The notes beneath the pieces are model-generated. The model was not told the DNA's origin. It did no database searches and saw only the letters and a program-made list of their open reading frames with translations. Below, piece after piece: positions 22 to 22,044 of a DNA stretch of 64,000 bases. Both the position numbers and the translations under genes were made by a program. Numbering within the stretch: the first letter of the stretch is position 1; each line of letters begins with the position of its first letter. The DNA is from Rickettsiales bacterium (GTDB taxonomy: Bacteria > Pseudomonadota > Alphaproteobacteria > Rs-D84), in assembly GCA_031254335.1 (NCBI GenBank), contig JAIRUP010000011.1, forward strand, positions 9,199 through 73,198, read 5' to 3'.

Positions 22-518
22 CTAAAAGTGGACGAGCGGGTCGGGATTGTCGATGGACCGAATCATGATGTTCATATCTTCCGTATCGCCGTATATGCGC
101 TGCTGGCACATATATTCGCAAGGCCAGTTGTAGGCTTTTTCAGTATCCAATCCAAGCTGGGCAAAGCTTTGTTCCTTGCAACTTGCCACGCAATATGGCG
201 TTCCCTGTCCCGCGCCAAGGCAGTATCTGTTCGCGCAAAAGTCGTCCAGGTCCTGTTGCGACGCAAGGCGGTGTTTCACCAAATATCCGCCATAGACATT
301 GGGTTGTCCGAACCGATTGTCGGAAGTTCTTCTAAGCATGCAAAAGCAGTTTAATCCGTCCCCGGCCGGGACAAGCTTTGTCAGCAGCTGGTATGTTTTG
401 CCGTCGGACCAGCCCATCATTAATCCGAAAGACGGAGTGGAAACAAGCGCGGATATTAAGAAAACGCGCAGAAATCTAGAGAGAGAGAGAGAGAGAGTTG
501 TAGGTTTGTGTATTTCAT
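22..518 (-). CDS. Cys-rich secreted protein, family member A (body frame 22..477; upstream ATG 518 out of frame across (CT)10)
   Basis: Track ORF 22..420 stays open upstream without ATG/GTG/TTG, through a signal-peptide-like RFLRVFLISALVSTPSFG, up to the repeat. ATG 518 is 41 nt (21+20) from that frame. Shares NCFC, FC..YC and CY..C cysteines and the C-terminal P.PLV(R/H)F with the ORFs at 15539 and 20164. Confidence 0.6.
478..497. repeat. (AG)10 = (CT)10 dinucleotide tract in the coding sense of gene A
   Basis: Read directly: tct(ag)10ttg. The + strand ORF 299..520 translates it as ERERER. Confidence 0.95.
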
Positions 519-524
519 AGTGTG

Positions 525-533
525 ATTATATCA
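525..533 (-). promoter_or_regulatory. Extended -10 element TGATATAAT, 6 nt upstream of ATG 518 (leaderless geometry)
   Basis: Minus strand reads tatgatataat-cacact-ATG. The same TATAAT-N6-start geometry occurs at 16057, 21890 and 35513. Confidence 0.45.
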
Positions 534-540
534 TAAAAAG

Positions 541-568
541 TAAGAAGTAAGAAGTAAGAAGTAAGAAG
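541..568. repeat. Tandem heptamer TAAGAAG x4
   Basis: Four perfect tandem copies read directly. In minus sense they lie immediately upstream of the gene A -10 element, covering the -35 region. Confidence 0.9.
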
Positions 569-5692: not shown

Positions 5693-6524
5693 TATGATGG
5701 GGATAAAGAAATTTTTCGGTGGAATGCGGTTCTTCGTCTGGTTCGCTTGGAGCATACTGAACGCCCCGCTGTTCATAATATCGTCCATGCTGCCGCCCAA
5801 TTCGCGCGTCGGAATCCTGCGATTCTATATGAAGAACTCATACCGCGTGTTCGGGTTCCGCGCGCGCCGCATCGGCGATGTCGCAAAGGACAGGCCCCTT
5901 ATGATTGTCTGCAACCATATCGGATGGCTGGAACTTTTCGCTTTGCCAAGCGTCGCGAAGGTATCCTTCTTCGGCAAGGCCGAAATTAAAAGCTGGCCGG
6001 TTTTGGGCTGGATTGTCGGCGCGCTCGGCGTCGTCTATGTGGACCGCAGGCCCCAGCATGTGAAGGAATCCCTGGCCGCCGTCAATTGCGCCATGAAATG
6101 CGCGGCGCACCCAATCGCGCTTTTCCCCGAAGGCACCACCAGCAACGGCGCGTATATCAAAAAATTCAAGTCGTCCCTGTTCAATTTTTTGGAACCGCAG
6201 CTTGCGGGCCAGGGCGGAAATGTCGCAATCCAGCCCGTAGTTCAGATTTACAGATACCCGGACGGACGCCTGATTCCCGACAAGGATTTGGCCGACAATT
6301 ACGCCTATTTCAACAACGACTCGGTCGAATACGGCCCCCAGGCAGAGGTTCAGCGAAACGGCGTCGCAATCGCAATCAATATCATGGCGCGCGGCGGGAT
6401 TTTGGTGGAGTATCACTTCCTTCCCGTCGTCGATTTGTCGGGCGTTCACGACCGCAAGGCCTTGGCGGAAAAGTTGCAAAAGATTATAGCGGATAAGTAT
6501 AAGGAATTAAGGGCAGGGGCATAG
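5682..6524 (+). CDS. olsA: Lyso-ornithine lipid O-acyltransferase OlsA-like (PlsC family)
   Basis: 280 aa. NHIGWLE and FPEGTTSNG acyltransferase motifs. Overlaps the olsB end by 11 nt (alternative ATGs at about 5694/5697). Confidence 0.7.
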   Translation: MRNNMMGIKKFFGGMRFFVWFAWSILNAPLFIISSMLPPNSRVGILRFYMKNSYRVFGFRARRIGDVAKDRPLMIVCNHIGWLELFALPSVAKVSFFGKAEIKSWPVLGWIVGALGVVYVDRRPQHVKESLAAVNCAMKCAAHPIALFPEGTTSNGAYIKKFKSSLFNFLEPQLAGQGGNVAIQPVVQIYRYPDGRLIPDKDLADNYAYFNNDSVEYGPQAEVQRNGVAIAINIMARGGILVEYHFLPVVDLSGVHDRKALAEKLQKIIADKYKELRAGA

Positions 6525-6525
6525 T

Positions 6526-6578
6526 CCCCCCCACCGAAACCGCTTTGCGGTTTCGACTCCCCCACAAGGGGGGAGTTA
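6526..6578. repeat. Double-hairpin palindromic element, intergenic copy
   Basis: cccccccaccGAAACCGctttgCGGTTTCgaCTCCCCCacaaGGGGGGAGtta, starting 2 nt after the olsA stop. Near-identical copy at 21099..21155. Confidence 0.85.
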
Positions 6579-6587
6579 ACAAGTCAA

Positions 6588-6839
6588 TTATTCATAGAGT
6601 TTGCAATAGACGGTTTCGTCTTCCTTCACCATGCTGGCGAAGGAATTGCCGCCGTCGGACATGACCTTGTCGTCGATTGCCCTGCAATCTTCCTTGGCCG
6701 TCGCCTCGTTGTTCATGCGGCATTTGCCGTCTTCGACCGTGCCGAACTGCTCGCAGGCTTCATTGAAATTCGGGTTGGCATACGCGACGCCGAACGACAT
6801 GGCGGCAACGACGGGAACGATTAAAAGTTTTTTGTTCAT
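6588..6839 (-). CDS. Small secreted Cys-containing protein (hypothetical)
   Basis: 83 aa, signal peptide MNKKLLIVPVVAAMSFGVAYA, 4 Cys, AAGGAG Shine-Dalgarno. N-terminal similarity to ORF 61358..61690. Confidence 0.6.
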   Translation of the reverse strand: MNKKLLIVPVVAAMSFGVAYANPNFNEACEQFGTVEDGKCRMNNEATAKEDCRAIDDKVMSDGGNSFASMVKEDETVYCKLYE

Positions 6840-6901
6840 GACGGACTCCTTTTTTAATGGGTTGCCCCATCATATCATAAAACAGAAATTCGTTCAAGGG
6901 A

Positions 6902-7393
6902 CTAAGAACATTCCTCGTCGGACCAGCACTGGAACTGCGTCGCCAGGGACACGCTGAAATTGCCGTTCTTTTCCCGCCTTAGATACACCGAAAAATTCCG
7001 ATTGTCTTTCAGCGACATATCCACCCGCATATTCTTCCCTGTTTCGGGATTGAACACGCACGCCTTGTCGTCCGCGATTTCGCACAAATTCTTCCGCCTG
7101 TTCATATACAAATCGACAATCGTGTATTTATAGTCCTTGCCCGCCAGATACGACAGCGCGTTCTTCATGTCTTCCGAATATTTCAGGCCGACCTTTTTGC
7201 AAAGGTCCGGCTGGTTCCTTATCACGCACGCCACCACCGTATCGAACACGCACATCGGGTCGTCCGCGCGGCCCACGCACTCGCCGTCCTTCGGCGACAC
7301 CGACACGGTTCTTTCCGCGAAGTAGTTCTCGGCGGAGAACGCCGAAAAAGGAAGAAGGAAGAAGGCAGAAGCAAGAAGTAGTGATTTCATCAT
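6902..7393 (-). CDS. Secreted hypothetical protein
   Basis: 163 aa, signal peptide MMKSLLLASAFFLLPFSAFSA, several Cys. Lies 19 nt downstream of the M23 gene on the same strand. Confidence 0.6.
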   Translation of the reverse strand: MMKSLLLASAFFLLPFSAFSAENYFAERTVSVSPKDGECVGRADDPMCVFDTVVACVIRNQPDLCKKVGLKYSEDMKNALSYLAGKDYKYTIVDLYMNRRKNLCEIADDKACVFNPETGKNMRVDMSLKDNRNFSVYLRREKNGNFSVSLATQFQCWSDEECS

Positions 7394-12449: not shown

Positions 12450-12469
12450 ATTTGGTGGATGGTGAGGGA
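12450..12469 (-). repeat. Duplicated 3-prime fragment of tRNA-Val (att-like direct repeat)
   Basis: atttggtggatggtgaggga is identical to 12627..12646, which covers the CCA end, the acceptor 3-prime strand and part of the T arm of the intact tRNA. Confidence 0.75.
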
Positions 12470-12629
12470 TTGGCTCGACCTTAGGCCTGCGCCGCATTCG
12501 TTCGCGCTCGAACTTCGCAAGCTCGTTCTCGCTGACTCATTGTCGAACCCCTCGCCGCTTCGCGGCTCATGGGGTTCTCGAAACCCACATATTCACCAAA
12601 TTTCCATAACCGCAAGGGTTATTGAAATT

Positions 12630-12705
12630 TGGTGGATGGTGAGGGACTCGAACCCCCGACCCTTTCGATGTAAACGAAACGCTCTACCAACTGAGCTAAC
12701 CATCC
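12630..12705 (-). tRNA. tRNA-Val (anticodon UAC), CCA encoded
   Basis: Reverse complement GGATGGTTAGCTCAGTTGGTAGAGCGTTTCGTTTACATCGAAAGGGTCGGGGGTTCGAGTCCCTCACCATCCACCA folds as a cloverleaf: 7-bp acceptor stem, anticodon loop TTTACAT, TTCGAGT T-loop. Confidence 0.9.
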
Positions 12706-12755
12706 GGTCGGCTTATTTTACTGGAATTTTCGGAAAAGTCAAATATACTTGCGGA

Positions 12756-14027
12756 ATGTTCGATAATAACGACACCATTTTCGCTTTGTCTTCCGGGAAT
12801 CCCCCGGCGGGCGTCGCCGTCACAAGGATTTCGGGAAGCGGGTTGGAAAAATTATTTTCCGATTTGACGGGAATCGCCGAACCGGCGGCGCGCCATTTGT
12901 ATCTTGTGAAAATTCCGAATGCGGACGATGTTCTGGCCGTGTATTTCAAGGCTCCGAATTCCTTTACGGGCGAGGATGTCATCGAGATTCATTCGCACGG
13001 TTCCGACGCCGTGATTCAGAAAATATTCGCGCTTCTTAAAACACGCGGCGCGCGTTTGGCAGAGCGCGGCGAATTTTCCGCGCGCGCTTTCCTTAACGGC
13101 AAAATGGATTTGCAGCAAGTCGACGGCTTGGCCGATTTGATTCACGCCAAGACCGAGCAACAACGGATTCAGGCATTCGCGGCATACACGGGCGAGGGTT
13201 CCCGCCTGTATCATTCCTGGCGCGCGCGCTTGGTCAATGCGACCGCCAACCTTGCCGCCGCCGCGGAATTTCCCGAGGACGAATTGCCGGGAGGATTGGT
13301 CGCCGGCGCGCTTAAAGAAATTCGCGCGCTCGCCGACGAAATCCTTAAACATCTTGGGACATACGCTGCCGGCCGCGCCATCAGGTCGGGATTCCGCATA
13401 GTTCTCGCGGGAAAGGTGAACGCCGGAAAGTCCAGCATGTTCAACGCTTTGCTTGGAAGCTCCCGCGCCATTGTTTCCGAAACCCCGGGCACCACGCGCG
13501 ATTTCATAACGGCAGAAATCGACATCGGCGGGTATTTGGTGGAACTGATTGACACGGCGGGACTCCGCGAAACCGAGAATGAAATCGAGAATGCGGGAAT
13601 AGAAAAATCGCGCGATTTGATAACAGGGGCGGACCTTGTGATAAGCGTCATCAATCCAAAGGATGAGATACCGGGTCGCGGCTTCGCCTTGCCCGGTATG
13701 ACAGTGAAGACACACTTGGATTTGTATTCGGACGCCGATGTGTCCGTCAAGACCGGGCAGGGTATGGAAGATTTTATTTCCAGGATTAAAAACGAAATAA
13801 AAGGCAAATTGGAAACGCGCGAGCCCGCCGTCGTTTCAAATGAAAAGACCGCCGAGCTGCTGCGCGCCGCCGCCGATTATTTGCGCGCCGCCTTGGCGGA
13901 ACCGGTGCCGGAGCTTGCCGCGGAGAATGTCCGCCTTGCGGCGGATGCGCTTGGAAAAGTTCTTGGCGAAGTCGATTTCGACGAGATTCAGTCCGCGATT
14001 TTCGGGCGTTTGTGCTTGGGGAAATAA
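12756..14027 (+). CDS. mnmE: tRNA modification GTPase MnmE
   Basis: Starts at MFDNNDTIFALSS. Has GKVNAGKSS (G1), DTAGLRE (G3) and the C-terminal CLGK. The upstream part of track ORF 12459.. runs through the tRNA and is an artefact. Confidence 0.9.
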   Translation: MFDNNDTIFALSSGNPPAGVAVTRISGSGLEKLFSDLTGIAEPAARHLYLVKIPNADDVLAVYFKAPNSFTGEDVIEIHSHGSDAVIQKIFALLKTRGARLAERGEFSARAFLNGKMDLQQVDGLADLIHAKTEQQRIQAFAAYTGEGSRLYHSWRARLVNATANLAAAAEFPEDELPGGLVAGALKEIRALADEILKHLGTYAAGRAIRSGFRIVLAGKVNAGKSSMFNALLGSSRAIVSETPGTTRDFITAEIDIGGYLVELIDTAGLRETENEIENAGIEKSRDLITGADLVISVINPKDEIPGRGFALPGMTVKTHLDLYSDADVSVKTGQGMEDFISRIKNEIKGKLETREPAVVSNEKTAELLRAAADYLRAALAEPVPELAAENVRLAADALGKVLGEVDFDEIQSAIFGRLCLGK

Positions 14028-14988: not shown

Positions 14989-15545
14989 AAGAGCTTTACA
15001 AGCTGGTGGAAGAGCAATCCAAGCATTACGACAAATATGAGAAAGTCTTCGAGGGGCAGACTTGGAAATACCACCTTAAACCCGTAATCGACAATGCGGT
15101 CAAGTTCGCCAAAGAGCGCGGAGGCGACGCCGAAGTCGTGGAAATCGCCGCGCTGTTCCACGACTGGGCGAATCTTGTGGATTTCGAGAAATACAGCGAG
15201 GTTCATCACATCGCCGGCGGCGATTTGGCCGAACCCATTCTCTTGCAAGCCGGTTATTCCCGGGACTTTATAGACAAAGTCAAAAAGTGCATTTTCGCCC
15301 ATCGCGGAAGCGTCGCGAAGAAAAAGGAATCCATAGAGGAAACATGCCTTGCGGACGCCGACGCAATCGCGCATATAGAGAATCTGTTCCAAATGATAAT
15401 GTGGATGGGACAATGCGGGCGGCCGATAGAAGAGGCGAACGAATTCCTTAAAGGCAAAATCACGCGCGATTTCGCTAAATTAAGCGACGCGGGCAAGGAT
15501 TATATCCGCGATAAATACGAAGCCGCGATGAAGATTTTTTATTGA
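14985..15545 (+). CDS. HD domain protein
   Basis: 186 aa. AALFHDWAN (HD motif) and a later H..D cluster. Start overlaps the Nudix stop. Confidence 0.7.
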   Translation: MKELYKLVEEQSKHYDKYEKVFEGQTWKYHLKPVIDNAVKFAKERGGDAEVVEIAALFHDWANLVDFEKYSEVHHIAGGDLAEPILLQAGYSRDFIDKVKKCIFAHRGSVAKKKESIEETCLADADAIAHIENLFQMIMWMGQCGRPIEEANEFLKGKITRDFAKLSDAGKDYIRDKYEAAMKIFY

Positions 15546-16050
15546 GGGTTGGGGCTGTCAAATCTGACCAGGGGCGATGGATTCGCGATTGAATCCGCCA
15601 TGTGCTTCAAGGCCGCCGGGTCTTTCGAGAACTTGTTGCACGCAACATAGCACGGACGCTCATGGATGTTCAGATTCGGATCATTTACGCAGGCACTAAT
15701 GCATGCGCCCATTCCCGGTCCGGGATTGTCTTCGCAGAATACGCTGCCGCAATAATATGTCCTATCATGTCCTGTTAGTTGTCCGGCATATACCATGAGG
15801 CCGCCGTATTGATTGAACTGTCCCGTCGCGCCGTCTTCGCGCTTCAATCTGCAAAAGCAGTTGTAGCCGCTTTTGTCATTTCCGCCTTCAAGACGGACAA
15901 TTATATGCTGGATACCGTATTTCGCGCCGTTATAAGTTATGTCGTATTCTCTTAATTCATAGGTGGCGAGGGCGGGGGACGATATTACGATTAGCGCGCA
16001 AACGCGCAGAAATCTAGAGAGAGAGAGAGTTGTAGGTTTGTATTCTTCAT
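15539..16050 (-). CDS. Cys-rich secreted protein, family member B (body frame 15539..16015; upstream ATG 16050 out of frame across (CT)7)
   Basis: The track ORF starts at TTG 15847, but the frame is open upstream through GYNCFC (family motif) and the signal-peptide-like RFLRVCALIVISSPALA to the repeat. ATG 16050 is 35 nt (21+14) from that frame. Confidence 0.6.
16016..16029. repeat. (AG)7 = (CT)7 dinucleotide tract in the coding sense of gene B
   Basis: Read directly: tct(ag)7ttg. The + ORF 15963..16259 translates it as ERER. Confidence 0.95.
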
Positions 16051-16056
16051 ATAAGG

Positions 16057-16065
16057 ATTATAGCA
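16057..16065 (-). promoter_or_regulatory. Extended -10 TGCTATAAT, 6 nt upstream of ATG 16050
   Basis: Minus strand reads TTGACC-N18-TATAAT-ccttat-ATG. The TTGACC lies inside the hairpin module at 16066..16110. Confidence 0.45.
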
Positions 16066-16110
16066 TTACCTGGGTTCTCGGGTCAAGCTCGACCATGACA
16101 ATTTTTATTT
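16066..16110. repeat. Intergenic hairpin module ATTACCTGG..TCGGGTCAAGC.CGACCATGACAATTTT
   Basis: Homologous to the reverse complement of 63855..63905 and to the split copy at 598..745. Stem GGTCGAG/CTCGGG-type around a TCAAGC loop. Confidence 0.5.
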
Positions 16111-18196
16111 ATCCTATCACTAGATTTTTGGAATTGGCGTCAAGGTCTACCATTCCGCCGGGCTTCGTTTTCCCGGACAGGATAAGGTCCGCGATTTTGT
16201 CCTCTACCTCCGTCATAATCAATCGCTTCAACGGGCGCGCGCCGAATGCCGGGTCATAGCCATGCTCGGCCAGCCATTCCACCGCGCGTTTCGATGTGTG
16301 AAGCGACAGGTTTTTTTCCTGCAACCGTTTTTCCAGATTGCCCAGCTGTATTTCCACAATGTCGTCCATGACTTTGCGCGAAAGCGGCTGGAACATTATG
16401 ACTTCGTCTATTCTATTCAGAAATTCCGGGCGCAGGCTGCGTTTAAGCAACGCCATCACCCCGTCCGTATCGTTCGGGTTTTCCAGCAGCAAATCAGAAC
16501 CCAGATTGGAAGTCATTATTATAATGGTGTTGGAAAAATTCACCGTGCGGCCCTGTCCGTCCGTAAGGCGGCCGTCGTCAAGGACTTGCAGCAGCACATT
16601 GAAGACATCGCGGTGCGCCTTTTCGATTTCGTCGAACAGCACGACCTGATACGGCCTTCTCCGCACGGCTTCGGTAAGCGCGCCGCCCTGCTCGTAGCCC
16701 ACATATCCCGGAGGGCTGCCGATTAGGCGCGACACCGAATGCGGCTCCATATATTCGCTCATGTCAATCCGCACCATCGCGGAATCGTCGTCGAACAAAA
16801 GTTCCGCGACGGCCTTCACCAGCTCGGTTTTGCCGACGCCGGTCGGCCCCAAAAACATGAACGAACCCTGCGGCCGCCTGCTGTCGGACAGGCCCGCGCG
16901 ACTGCGCCGGATGGCGCGCGCGATAACGCCAAGCGCGTTGTCCTGGCCCACCACGCGCTTCGCCAGCTCGCTTTCGATTTTCAATAATTTCGACTGCTCG
17001 TCTTCCGATAATTTTTGCACGGGTATGCCGGTCCATTTGGAAATCACCTGTTCGATATGTCGCGCGCCGACGGTTTTCAGGTCTTCGGAACTGTTCTTTT
17101 CAAGCCGCGCGATTTTCGCCGTCAGCTCCGGGATTTTTCCGTTCTGCAAGCCGCCCGCCGCCGCGTAATCGCCGCGCCGAACCGCGCTTTGCATTTCGGC
17201 CTTGGCCGCGTCAAGTTCCTCTATCGCGCCCGCCAGGCCCTTCATGTTTTCGCGCTCGGTCTTCCAGGCCGCGGTCATGGCCGCCGATTCCTTTTCGATT
17301 TCCGCGATTTGCTTTTCAAGCTCGGCCAGCCGTTTTTTAGAGTCGGCGTCCTTTTCCTTTTTCAACGCTTCGCGCTCTATCTTCATTTGCGTCAGGCGGC
17401 GGTCGGTTTCATCCAGCTTTTCGGGTTTCGACGCGATAACAATGCGGACGCGGGCGGCGGCTTCGTCAATCAAGTCAATCGCCTTGTCCGGCAGGAACCT
17501 GTCCGAAATGTATCTGTCCGACAGGCGCGCCGCCGCGACCAGCGCGGCGTCCGAAATGCGCACGCCGTGATGGCCTTCGTATCTTTCTTTTAGTCCCCGC
17601 AGAATCGAAATCGTGTCTTCCACCGTCGGCTCGTCCACGAAAACGGGCTGGAAGCGGCGCGCAAGGGCAGGGTCCTTTTCGATATACTCGCGGTATTCGT
17701 CTAGCGTCGTCGCGCCCATGCAATGAAGCTCGCCCCGGGCGAGCATGGGTTTCAGCATATTGCCCGCGTCCATTGCGCCTTCGGCTTTGCCCGCGCCGAC
17801 CACCGTATGAAGCTCGTCTATGAAAAGAATTATTTTGCCGTCGGAATCTTTGACGGCGTTAAGGACGCCTTTCAGCCGTTCCTCGAATTCGCCCCTGTAT
17901 TTCGCGCCCGCCGTCATCGCGCCCAAATCAAGCGACAGGATTTTTTTGCCCAGCAGGTTTTCCGGCACATCGCCCGAGACTATGCGGCCCGCAAGGCCTT
18001 CGGCGATGGCGGTTTTTCCGACGCCCGGCTGGCCGATTAAAACGGGGTTGTTCTTGGTGCGGCGGGTCAGGACCTGAATCGCGCGCCGAACCTCGTCGTC
18101 GCGGCCGATTACCGGGTCAAGTTTTCCCTTCGCGGCAAGCGCGGTAAAGTCCGTCGTGAATTTTTCAAGCGGGTTTATATTTTCATGTTCTTCCAT
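16109..18196 (-). CDS. clpB: ClpB-type AAA+ disaggregase lacking the N-terminal domain
   Basis: About 695 aa from [14 protein letters not shown] (GAGG Shine-Dalgarno 5 nt upstream). Two Walker A motifs ([16 protein letters not shown]) and a coiled-coil M-domain. The sequence begins where NBD1 normally begins ([20 protein letters not shown]). Confidence 0.9.
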
Positions 18197-18269: not shown

Positions 18270-18333
18270 AGGCGGTGAAAAAAGTATTGGCTTCGGCGGT
18301 TGGATTTTTCTATAATGCCGGAAAGGAAGCAGA

Positions 18334-18477
18334 ATGTTCAAAACGAAACCATTGAAGAATTATTCGGATTTCATAGCATTGCGCAAGAATCTTAGATGTT
18401 CATTTGATCACCGCGACGATTCAAAAATTTACAAAAAGCCGCGGTTTGTGCGTATTATCAAAAAAAGATTTGATTGA
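18334..18477 (+). CDS. Possible 47-aa basic peptide upstream of the methyltransferase
   Basis: ATG preceded by TATAAT and an AGGAAG Shine-Dalgarno. [49 protein letters not shown]-rich. No homology recognised. Confidence 0.25.
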
Positions 18478-18504
18478 AGAGCTGGCCCCGTATTTATCGG
18501 ATGA

Positions 18505-19341
18505 ATGATGGATTATGTGAATAAAGTCTTTAACGAAGATGTGATGGAAACCCTCAAAAGGATTCCTGACAATTCCGTCGCAATGATTTTTGGCGACCCT
18601 GATTATAATGTCGGCATAAACTATGCCGGCGCGAGATACACAAAAAAATGGAACGACTATATCGATTGGTATATCGCATTGACGAAAGAATGCATGCGCG
18701 TGTTAAAGCCGGACGGAAATTTATTCATGCTAAATTATCCTAAGCAAAATTCATATCTGCGGGTAAAGTATCTTGACGACAATGCATATTCGGTGAACGA
18801 TTATGTTTGGGTTTATAATTCCAATGTGGGGATGTCGAACAATAAACTAACGACGGCGCACAGGTCGCTGCTGCATGCCACAAAAAGCAAGAATAACAAA
18901 TTTTACAAAGACGCTGTCGCTGTTCCATATCAAAATCCGACGGACAGGCGGATTATGCGAAATATCGCAAATGGAAGCAAAGGCAGAATGCCGTATTCCT
19001 GGTTCTATTTTGATTTGGTAAAGAATGTATCCAAAGAAAAAACCTTTCATTCCTGCCAAATCCCGCAAAAGATGGTTGAAATGCTTATAAACGCGACGAC
19101 TGTTGAAAATGATTTGGTGCAAATCCTATTCGGAGGTTCCGGCGGGGAAATCATTTTGGCGAAAAATATGAATCGCCGATTCGTATCCAGTGAAATTCAC
19201 AAGCCTTATTTCGATTTGATAACAAAACGATTGGAATCAGGCGGAGATATTCCAAAAGTTCTTAAATTAAATTTGCACAAGAACAGAAAAGTGGATGACA
19301 AAACAAATTTATTTAATGAAAAATTGTTATTGGTGGCTTAA
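18505..19341 (+). CDS. DNA methyltransferase (N6-adenine/N4-cytosine, beta class)
   Basis: 278 aa. Motif IV FGDPDYN (DPPY-type) precedes motif I FGGSGG. Markedly AT-rich relative to neighbours. Confidence 0.85.
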   Translation: MMDYVNKVFNEDVMETLKRIPDNSVAMIFGDPDYNVGINYAGARYTKKWNDYIDWYIALTKECMRVLKPDGNLFMLNYPKQNSYLRVKYLDDNAYSVNDYVWVYNSNVGMSNNKLTTAHRSLLHATKSKNNKFYKDAVAVPYQNPTDRRIMRNIANGSKGRMPYSWFYFDLVKNVSKEKTFHSCQIPQKMVEMLINATTVENDLVQILFGGSGGEIILAKNMNRRFVSSEIHKPYFDLITKRLESGGDIPKVLKLNLHKNRKVDDKTNLFNEKLLLVA

Positions 19342-19343
19342 TA

Positions 19344-19796
19344 ATGGCCACCATACATTTCATGCACGGATTCATCGCTTGTGGCAAAAGCACTTATGCC
19401 AAAAAGCTGGCGCGGGAGCTTGGAATTCCAAGGGTCGCGCGGGACGATATTTGTATGGAAATCAAAGGCAGGCCGATATTCGAGTTCGACACCGAGACGC
19501 GGAGAGAACTTATGGACATGACCCGCGCCAGGGTTGCGGAAATCGTCAAGGACGGCAAGGATGTCGTTTTCGACATGGGCAACTGGACGCGGGCTTCGCG
19601 CGACGAAAACAGGAAATGGGCGAAGTCCCTGGGCGCGGATTATAAATTTTACAGCATGAAATGCACGCCGGAAACCGCATTGAAAAGGTCGGCGGCGCGC
19701 GATGACGGATACCCGCCGGAGCGTTTCGCCGAACAATTCAAACGGTTCGAGCCCATGCAGGCCGACGAGGAATTCGTGGAAGTTGATTCGGAATAA
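19344..19796 (+). CDS. P-loop kinase-like ATP-binding protein (AAA_33/zeta-toxin-like fold)
   Basis: 150 aa. Walker A GFIACGKST at the N-terminus. Starts 3 nt after the methyltransferase stop. Confidence 0.65.
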   Translation: MATIHFMHGFIACGKSTYAKKLARELGIPRVARDDICMEIKGRPIFEFDTETRRELMDMTRARVAEIVKDGKDVVFDMGNWTRASRDENRKWAKSLGADYKFYSMKCTPETALKRSAARDDGYPPERFAEQFKRFEPMQADEEFVEVDSE

Positions 19797-19802
19797 AAAA
19801 AA

Positions 19803-19824: not shown

Positions 19825-19914
19825 GATTATACCAAAACCGGCACGCCTTCAAGTAAAGCCGCCCGCATGAAAAAAGTGTTGGCATTACATCTCGTTTGAT
19901 ATTATAATGTTTCT

Positions 19915-20024
19915 TGAATCCAAAGGGATTTGGGTTCGGGACCTTCAAAAAGTCCATCACTAAACGGTATATAAAAATGTGCCGTATCCGCTGGGCAATA
20001 AAGCGGCGCGTATGCGCCTTTTTT
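19915..20024 (+). ncRNA. Candidate small RNA (own promoter and terminator)
   Basis: TTGGCA-N18-TATAAT (19879..19908), four short hairpins, then GGCGC-gtat-GCGCC plus T6 at 20005..20024. No credible ORF. Confidence 0.35.
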
Positions 20025-20030
20025 ATTGTT

Positions 20031-20158
20031 TCCCCTGCCAAAGGTCGGGGAGCCGCCAGTTATACAACAGGGGCAACCCAAAGACCGGCGGGGTCATTTT
20101 AGTGATGATTTTTTGAACTCTCCCGACCGCCAACTTCCCGTTGGCGGTTTTTTCTAAA
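20031..20158 (+). promoter_or_regulatory. Structured leader with pseudoknot potential and a terminator, upstream of Cys-rich gene C
   Basis: Interleaved pairs CCCCUG(20032)/CAGGGG(20068) and CCGCC(20053)/GGCGG(20087). GGUCGGG(20043)/CCCGACC(20122) overlaps the terminator ACCGCCAAC-loop-GUUGGCGGU+U6 (20126..20153). Confidence 0.35.
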
Positions 20159-20163
20159 AAAGG

Positions 20164-20619
20164 GTGAAAAAAATCATAAGCAAAAAAATCTTTTTTTTCG
20201 CGGCGGCCGCCGCCATATTCGCGGCGCAAGGGCAATGCTTCGCCGCAAACGACTATGAAATCAAATATAGGATGGTGGAAATCGGCGGCGGATACAACTG
20301 CTTTTGCGGCCTTGAAAGAAAATCGGACGGCAAAACAGGCGGATTCAACCAATACGGCAAATTCATACCCAAGCTCAATCTTGCGGCAATGACCCAAAAT
20401 GAACTAGAATCATTCTGCGGCACACAATATTGCGAAGGATTAGTAGGCCAAAGTAATGGCTATTGCATGCAAGATTGCACAAACGGGCGTCCAAAGGTTT
20501 TTCCCAAATTAGAAGACCGGGTTTGTTATGTCCAGTGCAATAAGTTCGAGAAAAATACCGATGCCATGGAATTTATGAAGGGTTCCATAGACCTGCCTAA
20601 TCCGCTTGTCCGGTTTTGA
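20164..20619 (+). CDS. Cys-rich secreted protein, family member C (intact)
   Basis: 151 aa. Signal peptide MKKIISKKIFFFAAAAAIFAAQGQCFA, then YNCFCGLERKSDGKTGGFNQYG, FC..YC, YC..C, CY..C, ending PNPLVRF. Confidence 0.75.
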   Translation: MKKIISKKIFFFAAAAAIFAAQGQCFAANDYEIKYRMVEIGGGYNCFCGLERKSDGKTGGFNQYGKFIPKLNLAAMTQNELESFCGTQYCEGLVGQSNGYCMQDCTNGRPKVFPKLEDRVCYVQCNKFEKNTDAMEFMKGSIDLPNPLVRF

Positions 20620-20629
20620 CATTCGATTT

Positions 20630-21883
20630 TTATTTGCTTAAATAATTCACGGGGTTCAGAGCGCGGGTGCCTTGGCGAAGCTCGAAGTGAAGCTGCGGGC
20701 TGGATACCTTGCCCGTCGCGCCCGCGCTTCCGATTTTCGCGCCGCGCGCGACCGTTTTGCCGCGCTCGACCAGTATCGTGTCAAGGTGTGCATAGACCGT
20801 CATGAAATTGTCCGCGTGCTTTATGATGACCAAGTTCCCAAGGCCCTTGATTTCGTTCCCGGCGTATGCGACGACGCCGTTCTCCGCCGCCGACACGGGG
20901 TCGCCGCGCACGGCCTTGATATTGATTCCGTCGTTGTAAAGCCCGTTCGATTTCGCGCCGAATTCCGACAGGATTATGCCATGCAAGGGCCAGGCGAATT
21001 TCTTCGCAGAGCGCGGCGGGACTTTTGGAAGGCTTGAAACACTGGCCGGCTTTTTCACGGCGATTGGCTGGGCTGTTGGAGTTGGTTCGGTTTTTTGACC
21101 CCCCACCGAAACCGGCGTTTCAGCCGGTTTCGACTCCCCCGCAAGGGGGGAGTTAGCAGGGGGTGTATCCGCAATGGGGGAGTTATTTGTTAATTGAATC
21201 TGGGCGGGAAGGACAAGTTTTTGGCCGACGCTTAATGCGAACGGCTCCTTCAAATCGTTCATTTGCGCGAGGCTGTTCAAGTCCATTTGGTAAAGCCGCG
21301 AAATCGAATAAAGCGTTTCGCCCTTCGCAACCGTATGCACGAACTGGCTTGGCAAAAACAGCCGGCGGCCCGGGTTCAGCGCATAGGGCGGTTCCAGCTT
21401 GTTCGCCGTGATAAGGTCGCGCAGCGGGACATTGTGCTTACGCGACAGGCTGTAAAGGGTGTCCCCGGCCGCGACGGTTATAATGCTTTGCTGTTGCGGC
21501 ACTGTTTGGACCGGCGCGGGAGCTTCGGCGCGCTTCGGCACAATCAGCACATCGTCTTCGCCGCCGTCTTCCTTCGCCACGGGAACGGGCGGGGCGGGCG
21601 GGTCATAGTCCGACAATTTCCCGGTCGTGTAATAGTCCGATTTCGCGGAAGTGTTCACAGGTTTTTGGACTTGCGCCAGTTGTTGATAGTCCGAGATTTT
21701 TCCGGTTTCGTATTTAGGTTTTTCGGAATAGGGATTCGCCCAGAAACTTCCGGCCCCGCCTTCGTCCGCCTTCACTTCGTTACGGCGCGACTCCGGCGCG
21801 GCGGGTTTGCCGGTAATCGATTCCCGTATGTCGCACGCGGTTGTCAAAAACAGTGCCGCCAAAGCGACCATGACCTTTTTCAT
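20630..21883 (-). CDS. nlpD: LysM-LysM-M23 murein hydrolase activator/peptidase lipoprotein (NlpD-like)
   Basis: 417 aa. Lipobox LFLTTAC; two LysM repeats (ITVAAGDTLYSLSRKHNV.., HTVAKGETLYSISRLYQM..); C-terminal M23 domain (GINIKA.., LHFELRQG). Confidence 0.85.
   Translation of the reverse strand: MKKVMVALAALFLTTACDIRESITGKPAAPESRRNEVKADEGGAGSFWANPYSEKPKYETGKISDYQQLAQVQKPVNTSAKSDYYTTGKLSDYDPPAPPVPVAKEDGGEDDVLIVPKRAEAPAPVQTVPQQQSIITVAAGDTLYSLSRKHNVPLRDLITANKLEPPYALNPGRRLFLPSQFVHTVAKGETLYSISRLYQMDLNSLAQMNDLKEPFALSVGQKLVLPAQIQLTNNSPIADTPPANSPLAGESKPAETPVSVGGQKTEPTPTAQPIAVKKPASVSSLPKVPPRSAKKFAWPLHGIILSEFGAKSNGLYNDGINIKAVRGDPVSAAENGVVAYAGNEIKGLGNLVIIKHADNFMTVYAHLDTILVERGKTVARGAKIGSAGATGKVSSPQLHFELRQGTRALNPVNYLSK
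21099..21155. repeat. Double-hairpin palindromic element inserted in frame in the nlpD-like gene
   Basis: ccccccaccGAAACCGGcgtttcaGCCGGTTTCgaCTCCCCCgcaaGGGGGGAGtta. It encodes ANSPLAGESKPAETPVSVGG in the linker between the LysM and M23 domains. Confidence 0.85.
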
Positions 21884-21898: not shown

Positions 21899-22044
21899 TA
21901 AAATAAAGGAAGATGGAAGAAGGCAGAAGGAAGGGGCCGGGGGTGACGATATGGGGAAGGGCCCGGGGGGGGGTGACACATTATTTTATGCTTGCCTTGG
22001 CCGCTTGAAACTTGCTAATCTTCAAGAATAGAAGGGAGAATTTC

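Follow-up and report, generated by a model that had tools for sequence, protein, structure and literature searches.

How could a gene be expressed when the only start codon open to it lies out of frame with its body? This question is raised by gene B, one of the genes in the window (the whole stretch of DNA that was analysed, 64 kb in length), and again by a second member of the same family, gene A. In both genes a run of CT dinucleotides separates the ATG from the sequence that codes for the protein. A preliminary description had offered two ways out, namely a population that is mostly OFF or a recoding event on the repeat.

Gene B lies on the minus strand (Table 1). Its promoter consists of TTGACC and TATAAT separated by 18 nt, scored 11/12 in a promoter scan and carries a TG before the -10 element. 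From the start codon the gene reads ATG AAG AAT ACA AAC CTA CAA, then (CT)7, then AGA TTT CTG CGC GTT TGC, and the first base of the repeat is nucleotide 22 of the ORF. In the ATG frame the product is MKNTNLQLSLSLDFCAFAR*, of 19 codons. The body begins at the AGA (16015), codes for RFLRVCALIVISSPALA...GYNCFC... and is open to 15539; its frame contains one stop, at the end, against 10 stops in each of the other frames. Upstream, as far as a TAA located 9 nt before the ATG, the body frame contains no ATG, GTG or TTG, and the first of these codons to appear in it is a TTG at 15847, beyond the signal peptide. All that had been stated earlier on the sequence of gene B (promoter, ATG, (CT)7, a stop after 19 codons and a body that lacks a canonical start) is confirmed, with the minus strand as the coding strand.

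Gene A repeats this layout with a longer tract. The tract of each gene is preceded by ACAAACCTACAA and followed by nAGATTTCTGCGCGTTT, after which the next base is G in gene B and T in gene A. Outside the cassette the two genes are 35% identical as proteins and 46% identical as DNA, and the body of each contains one in-frame stop, where at least one of the other frames has 8–10. The same window contains a third paralogue, gene C. Genes A, B and C have in common nine invariant Cys columns and, at the C-terminus, an SI-x-x-P-x-PLV-x-F motif, and their N-termini resemble signal peptides followed by a Cys-rich domain, so that an exported product is predicted. Since gene C is intact, lacks a tract and has a start and a signal peptide of its own, the family appears to be functional; and since the bodies of genes A and B are intact, these two genes do not look like decayed pseudogenes. 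The two tract sites had earlier been called orthologous, which is a misnomer, given that they are paralogous positions within one genome.

Table 1. Positions in the window of the features of genes A, B and C.
Feature	Position	Strand	Remarks
Gene A, extended -10 TGATATAAT	525..533	-	6 nt, then ATG
Gene A, start codon	516..518	-	from sequence
Gene A, (CT)10 tract	478..497	-	at the codon position of the gene B tract; n = 1 mod 3
Gene A, body	22..477	-	intact; 152 codons
Gene B, TAA closing the ATG frame at n = 7	15991..15993	-	after 19 codons
Gene B, 3' flank AGATTTCTGCGCGTTT	16000..16015	-	R F L R V in the body frame; same in gene A
Gene B, body	15539..16015	-	signal-peptide core RFLRVCALIVISSPALA and Cys-rich mature domain; 159 codons
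Gene B, (CT)7 tract	16016..16029	-	proposed slipped-strand switch; predicted ON at 6, 9 or 12 units, OFF at present
Gene B, 5' flank ACAAACCTACAA	16030..16041	-	codons T N L Q; same in gene A
Gene B, start codon ATG	16048..16050	-	sole start open to the gene
Gene B, extended -10 TGCTATAAT	16057..16065	-	exactly 6 nt, then ATG
Gene B, -35-like hexamer TTGACC	16081..16086	-	18-nt spacer to the -10
Gene C, third paralogue	20164..20619	+	no CT tract; own start and signal peptide; 36–40% identity

As for gene C, its first 12 codons (20164–20200) read GTG AAA AAA ATC ATA AGC AAA AAA ATC TTT TTT TTC and contain A7, A7 and T8 runs, which are possible slippage sites; the gene itself is in frame here. 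Upstream of it lies a non-coding stretch of ~250 nt (19900–20153), which begins at a TATTATAAT box, closes with a strong hairpin that resembles a terminator (CCGCCAAC...GTTGGCGG, then T7), and may be a small RNA; the stretch matched no Rfam family at the gathering threshold.

The family was searched for at the level of protein, DNA, gene neighbourhood and fold. A word-indexed homologue search with the repaired gene B returned no match, and an HMM profile of genes A, B and C, run against 1.84 billion representative proteins, recovered only the truncated ORF of gene A together with three spurious repeat proteins. This ORF comes from a single contig of 73,271 bp that is present in NCBI as well as in JGI/IMG. 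The DNA pattern ACAAACCTACAA-N(0-30)-AGATTTCTGCG occurred 0 times in GTDB genomes and 0 times in JGI metagenomes, and a profile-guided scan of metagenome contigs yielded 0 relatives. The surroundings of clpB, the gene that adjoins gene B, contained no family member and no CT/AG run of at least 6 units in 80 related genomes. The closest ClpB in GTDB, from the rumen MAG RUG11692, is 70% identical, and the other GTDB matches, from alphaproteobacteria and other Proteobacteria, are 58–65% identical. Exact look-up of the hypothetical ON products (n = 6, 9 and 12 for gene A; n = 3, 6 and 9 for gene B) found none among 15 billion proteins, and for gene C and several truncated ORFs of genes A and B an exact look-up of the encoding contigs found nothing on record. 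Genes A, B and C matched nothing above the cut-off in Pfam, where Elicitin reached 15.3 bits for gene C against a cut-off of 25. An AlphaFold2 model, based on a three-sequence alignment of the paralogues (pLDDT 64), consists of three strands followed by four helices and found no match with E below 0.5 when compared with the PDB by Foldseek. The only Rfam match in the window is a tRNA-Val. Genes A, B and C are a new orphan gene family, lineage-restricted in that the searched collections hold no relatives.

The CT tracts stand out from the sequence that surrounds them. Only two CT/AG runs of at least 5 units occur in the 64-kb window, one in gene A and one in gene B, where 0.05 would be expected (mean of 200 dinucleotide-preserving shuffles); TRF at default settings reports the (CT)10 and omits the (CT)7. 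The 18-mer ACAAACCTACAACTCTCT, which joins the 5' flank to the first bases of the tract, is found solely at these two sites even when 3 mismatches are allowed, against 0 expected. In an alignment of the cassettes, TGnTATAAT-N6-ATGAA..ACAAACCTACAA-(CT)n-AGATTTCTGCGCGTTT, all 28 bases beside the tract are identical. Between these identical flanks the tract measures 7 units in gene B and 10 in gene A, which implies that it has changed length since the flanks last matched; the earlier claim that the tract is mutable is borne out by this difference. The identity of the flanks (12 nt and 16 nt) extends to synonymous sites and rare codons: their codons are identical in 9/9 cases, compared with 21/42 for identical residues elsewhere in the gene (p approximately 0.002). 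Conservation of this kind exceeds what the protein would impose and needs either short-patch gene conversion or a function at the nucleotide level. Short-patch conversion among paralogous cassettes is seen in the opa and bab/sab families. The codons of the tract are the rarest in the genome, with CTC accounting for 5% of Leu and TCT for 4% of Ser codons, which suggests that the tract is kept as a repeat and not for its coding value. Its neighbours are also rare (CTA, 2% of Leu; AGA, 6% of Arg).

The consequences of each repeat number were derived by building in silico every allele from n = 4 to n = 12. With 6, 9 or 12 units the ATG is joined to the body and the predicted product is a precursor of 162–173 aa with a normal signal peptide, the N-terminus of which consists of MK(N/Y)TNLQ, (LS) pairs, RFLRV and a hydrophobic core. 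When n = 1 mod 3 a TAA stop is met eight codons past the tract, and when n = 2 mod 3 the stop is a TAG made by the last CT and AG; across n = 4 to 12, the OFF alleles encode products of 10–21 aa. In both present alleles, which are OFF, the loss of one unit would restore the ON frame (6 and 9 units). As the preliminary description had noted, the two copies (7 and 10 units) share a single non-productive phase, n = 1 mod 3. The locus thus carries a perfect simple-sequence repeat in its 5' coding region, ahead of the mature protein; the unit is not a multiple of 3 and leaves one productive phase and two with early stops; the repeat exceeds in length and rarity what composition would predict; and the product is predicted to be secreted. 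Each of these features is characteristic of contingency loci.

The layout of the promoters indicates how tightly such a repeat could control expression. The arrangement TGNTATAAT-N6-ATG has three occurrences in the window (0 expected), all of them at the starts of genes, namely gene A, gene B and a LysM/M23 peptidase gene (21883). There is no Shine-Dalgarno sequence; in contrast, the adjoining clpB has GAGG 6 nt before its ATG. With a -10 element that ends 6 nt before the ATG, standard sigma-70 geometry would have transcription usually begin at the A of this codon. The mRNAs of genes A and B are therefore probably leaderless and start at the AUG, judging by this promoter layout. If so, the 5' AUG would be the sole point of ribosome entry, and the tract would act as a complete switch. 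Pyrimidine-rich heptamer repeats occupy the -35 position in two of the three promoters of leaderless type: (CTTCTTA)x5 at 534–568 (minus strand), just upstream of the -10 of gene A, and four CTTCCTT-like copies at 21906–21933, just upstream of the -10 of the M23 peptidase gene. Gene B has a normal TTGACC in this position and no heptamer repeat. The heptamers could vary expression at the level of transcription, as a second layer, or could be a promoter element that these genes share.

Taken together, it is likely that slipped-strand mispairing switches genes A and B on and off, which would make them contingency loci of the oipA type. According to the mechanism proposed, each gene would be transcribed from the extended -10 promoter located 6 nt before the ATG, the mRNA would begin at the AUG, and translation could begin solely at that 5' ATG. 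The (CT)n, situated between codon 7 and the predicted hydrophobic core of the signal peptide, would gain or lose units during replication and shift the frame. Alleles with n = 0 mod 3 would then yield MK(N/Y)TNLQ-(LS)x-RFLRV..., the secretory precursor of a small Cys-rich protein, and those with n = 1 or 2 mod 3 would lead to an early stop and leave the gene OFF. The assembled consensus would have caught both loci OFF, each a single deletion from ON. We infer the switching itself from the anatomy of the loci, the phases, the intact bodies, the tract lengths and the assembly breaks described below. Its role may be to vary the exposure of an antigen, secreted or on the surface, in an alphaproteobacterium that is associated with a host or a community.

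An independent view of the two tracts is provided by the Logan assembly of short reads from run SRR14710927, the k of which we take to be 31. The run represents the same strain, with 100% identity over 5.9 and 3.4 kb and one mismatch in 4.1 kb. None of its contigs crosses the tract of gene A or gene B. On the clpB side of gene B, contig L084 ends exactly after (CT)7; on the 3' side of the same gene, L002 ends 9 nt into the tract; and the first bases of L085, which covers the 3' side of gene A, are exactly (CT)7 and 17 nt of flank (AGATTT...). At 14 and 20 nt, neither tract reaches k = 31 in length, and a de Bruijn simulation with single alleles (A = 10, B = 7) produced no break. When gene B was given alleles of 7 plus at least 8 units, the end of L084 and the start of L085 were reproduced to the base; in the simulation, the break of L085 arises because a longer gene B allele shares 31-mers with gene A. 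For L002 the simulation places the end at 14 nt; the observed end, at 9 nt, is 5 nt short of this branch point and may reflect low coverage. The allele set A = {10,7}, B = {7} was rejected, as it predicts an 18-nt end. Three of the 10 contig ends examined fall inside the 34 nt that the two tracts make up, far above chance. These breaks give indirect support to alleles of mixed length, with PCR or sequencing stutter and thin coverage as further possible causes. Breaks in public k-mer assemblies can in this way expose hypervariable tracts without recourse to reads.

The same assembly bears on the possibility that the repeats were miscounted, with majority lengths that truly fit the frame and a consensus one unit out, owing to polymerase stutter or to the choice of consensus in assembling a metagenome. 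Stutter readily occurs at dinucleotide repeats, the sequence comes from one 73-kb contig of metagenome type, and the Logan assembly bridges neither tract. However, L084 holds all seven CT units after the 5' flank of gene B, which means that alleles of at least 7 units are present in the reads, and an allele of n = 6 at usable coverage is excluded by the simulation, in which it predicts a 12-nt contig end that is not seen. Such an error would, moreover, itself imply mixed lengths. A miscount of this kind is quite unlikely.

Alternatively, genes A and B could be frozen pseudogenes, inactivated by a change in repeat length and now decaying, with gene C as the sole working copy. Both genes are indeed out of frame, no ON allele is on record, the public annotations give gene A as truncated ORFs only (105 and 132 aa), and GC3 amounts to 0.57–0.61 compared with 0.69 in housekeeping genes. 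Decay is, on the other hand, hard to match with bodies that stay open over their full length in both genes, against the 10 stops in each of the other frames of gene B, or with the retention of all nine invariant Cys columns and the C-terminal motif in three paralogues. The promoter, the ATG and the flanks are also conserved between genes A and B, and two independent inactivations would have been needed at one engineered-looking site. We regard this explanation as very unlikely.

A programmed recoding event would make the out-of-frame state functional, either by +2 re-pairing of a tRNA on CUCUCU or by an RNA polymerase that slips by one CU unit. The preliminary description had moved towards this idea from the fact that both copies are OFF in one phase. 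Its geometry is correct, in that UCU-CUA-G shifted by +2 gives UCU-AGA, a perfect re-pairing on the dinucleotide repeat. Weiss and colleagues, in 1987, reportedly saw low-level +2 shifts in E. coli reporters. The rare codons in and beside the tract (CTA 2%, CTC 5%, TCT 4%, AGA 6%) could slow decoding, and the flanks (12 nt and 16 nt) do not differ even in synonymous positions. For the polymerase, the 9-bp hybrid would lie wholly inside the repeat. [quoted passage not shown] In a transcriptome-wide survey, however, insertions in homopolymeric runs were confined to A/T runs (PMC5574713). Two loci distributed over three phases are expected to share one OFF phase 2/9 of the time by chance, so the step from a shared phase to recoding is unsupported, the more so in view of the missing structure and slippery motif and of the assembly breaks at the tracts. 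Between 16050 and 15990 there is no slippery heptamer X_XXY_YYZ, shifty stop or A/T homopolymer (approximately 9 or more) of the known type; the CU repeat is the sole shift candidate there and re-pairs only after ±2 shifts. A frameshift-stimulating RNA structure was rejected, as folding energies were no better than those of shuffled controls (first 100 nt and 50 nt past the tract; z = -0.41, -0.70, -0.63 and -1.64). The sole downstream hairpin is a 5-bp GC stem, the loops and 3' arms of which differ between genes A and B. The repeat number differs between the copies, as in mutable contingency tracts, and the contig breaks point to length variants at the level of DNA. The identity of the flanks could equally well be explained by gene conversion among paralogous cassettes or by constraints on a leaderless 5' end. 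We know of no natural programmed +2 frameshift or dinucleotide polymerase stutter in bacteria, and consider recoding at these loci highly improbable.

A more far-reaching form of this idea takes n = 1 mod 3 as the working state, which would set a low level of full-length protein from OFF-phase DNA through tRNA-Ser or tRNA-Leu re-pairing by +2 on a leaderless mRNA, or through a polymerase that drops one CU unit or inserts two, with the identical 12-nt and 16-nt flanks as part of the signal; such a natural recoding site on a dinucleotide repeat would be without precedent in bacteria, and this form of the idea is exceedingly improbable. The view of decoding would be unchanged unless a recoding reading of such low probability proves true.

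The switching by slipped strands favoured here would take place in a chromosomal setting, since the window carries ldh, mnmE, clpB, gap, purH and purL. It also carries a VirB8/VirB9/VirB10-like cluster and a Fic protein, which fits a host- or community-associated lifestyle. Contingency loci are common in bacteria that live in this way. If the proposal is correct, small, lineage-restricted, Cys-rich secreted proteins are the likely targets of selection by a host, by phage or by the community.

Several further observations concern the neighbourhood of these genes. Where the LysM/M23 peptidase gene (start at 21883, minus strand) and the virB8-virB9-virB10-like cluster (from 22012, plus strand) diverge, the intergenic region contains the longest homopolymer in the window, a G9 at 21965–21973, which is a candidate phase-variable tract for type IV secretion genes. 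ClpB (16109–18196, minus strand) measures only 695 aa and starts where the N-terminal domain normally ends; the sequence upstream does not encode an N-domain. An island of low GC (18300–19800; 44.5% compared with ~54%), situated between clpB and gene C, encodes an N6/N4 DNA methyltransferase and an AAA-type kinase. The methyltransferase may be an orphan methylase or part of a mobile insertion, and no restriction enzyme gene is evident. The long MnmE ORF (12459–14027) overlaps the tRNA-Val gene (12630–12705, minus strand), and mnmE itself probably starts at the internal MFDNNDTIFALSSG. Between ldh and gene A (573–592) lies a perfect palindrome of 20 nt, GTGTCTATTATAATAGACAC, with a T-run after it; it is terminator-like on the plus strand and contains TATAAT, and Logan contig L001 ends ~15 nt before it. 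To the left of the window, downstream of gene A, L085 carries two adjacent genes for outer-membrane beta-barrel proteins (L085 positions 5942–7393) with a weak match to the Opacity family, less than 7 kb from gene A, and several ORFs without a Pfam match are found within the same distance. Apart from the tract at its end, the L085 locus contains no SSR.

Genes A and B can be set beside three kinds of known system. One is programmed frameshifting and transcriptional slippage, as in dnaX, prfB, IS elements, Thermus dnaX and Shigella mxiE. In these cases too a change of frame is needed between the start and the body, at a repetitive and shift-prone sequence. They rely on X_XXY_YYZ or a shifty stop together with an SD-like or structural stimulator, or on A/T homopolymers at which the polymerase slips, and signals of these types are absent from genes A and B. 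To our knowledge, none of the known cases occurs on a dinucleotide repeat or by a +2 shift. The opa genes of Neisseria, which carry CTCTT pentamer repeats in the region coding for the signal peptide, are similar in family organisation: they form a multi-copy family with a conserved 5' cassette and a pyrimidine repeat inside the codons of the leader peptide. Most opa copies are OFF in any one cell, and the 5' ends of the paralogues are homogenised by recombination. They differ in their pentamer unit and in coding for outer-membrane beta-barrels, whereas genes A and B are only two putatively switched copies, with a dinucleotide unit.

The closest known system is oipA (hopH) of Helicobacter pylori, and likewise sabA, babA and hopZ. 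In oipA, sabA and babA, CT repeats lie in the region coding for the signal peptide and slipped-strand mispairing sets the ON or OFF state (PMC10564699). As in genes A and B, the unit of oipA is CT and is located in the 5' signal-peptide coding region, ahead of the C-terminal end of that peptide; the frame depends on how many CT units are present, and OFF alleles meet early stops; and several members of a paralogous family of exported proteins are involved. The product, on the other hand, is a Hop outer-membrane beta-barrel in H. pylori and a predicted secreted, Cys-rich protein of approximately 15 kDa in genes A and B; the host genome is that of an epsilonproteobacterium in one case and of an uncultured alphaproteobacterium in the other; and the promoter layout of genes A and B implies a leaderless mRNA as a further difference. 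The CT-repeat switch proposed here is a known mechanism in a new gene family and a new lineage. If correct, it extends the CT-repeat signal-peptide switch, known mainly from Helicobacter, to an uncultured alphaproteobacterium with a VirB-type secretion system.
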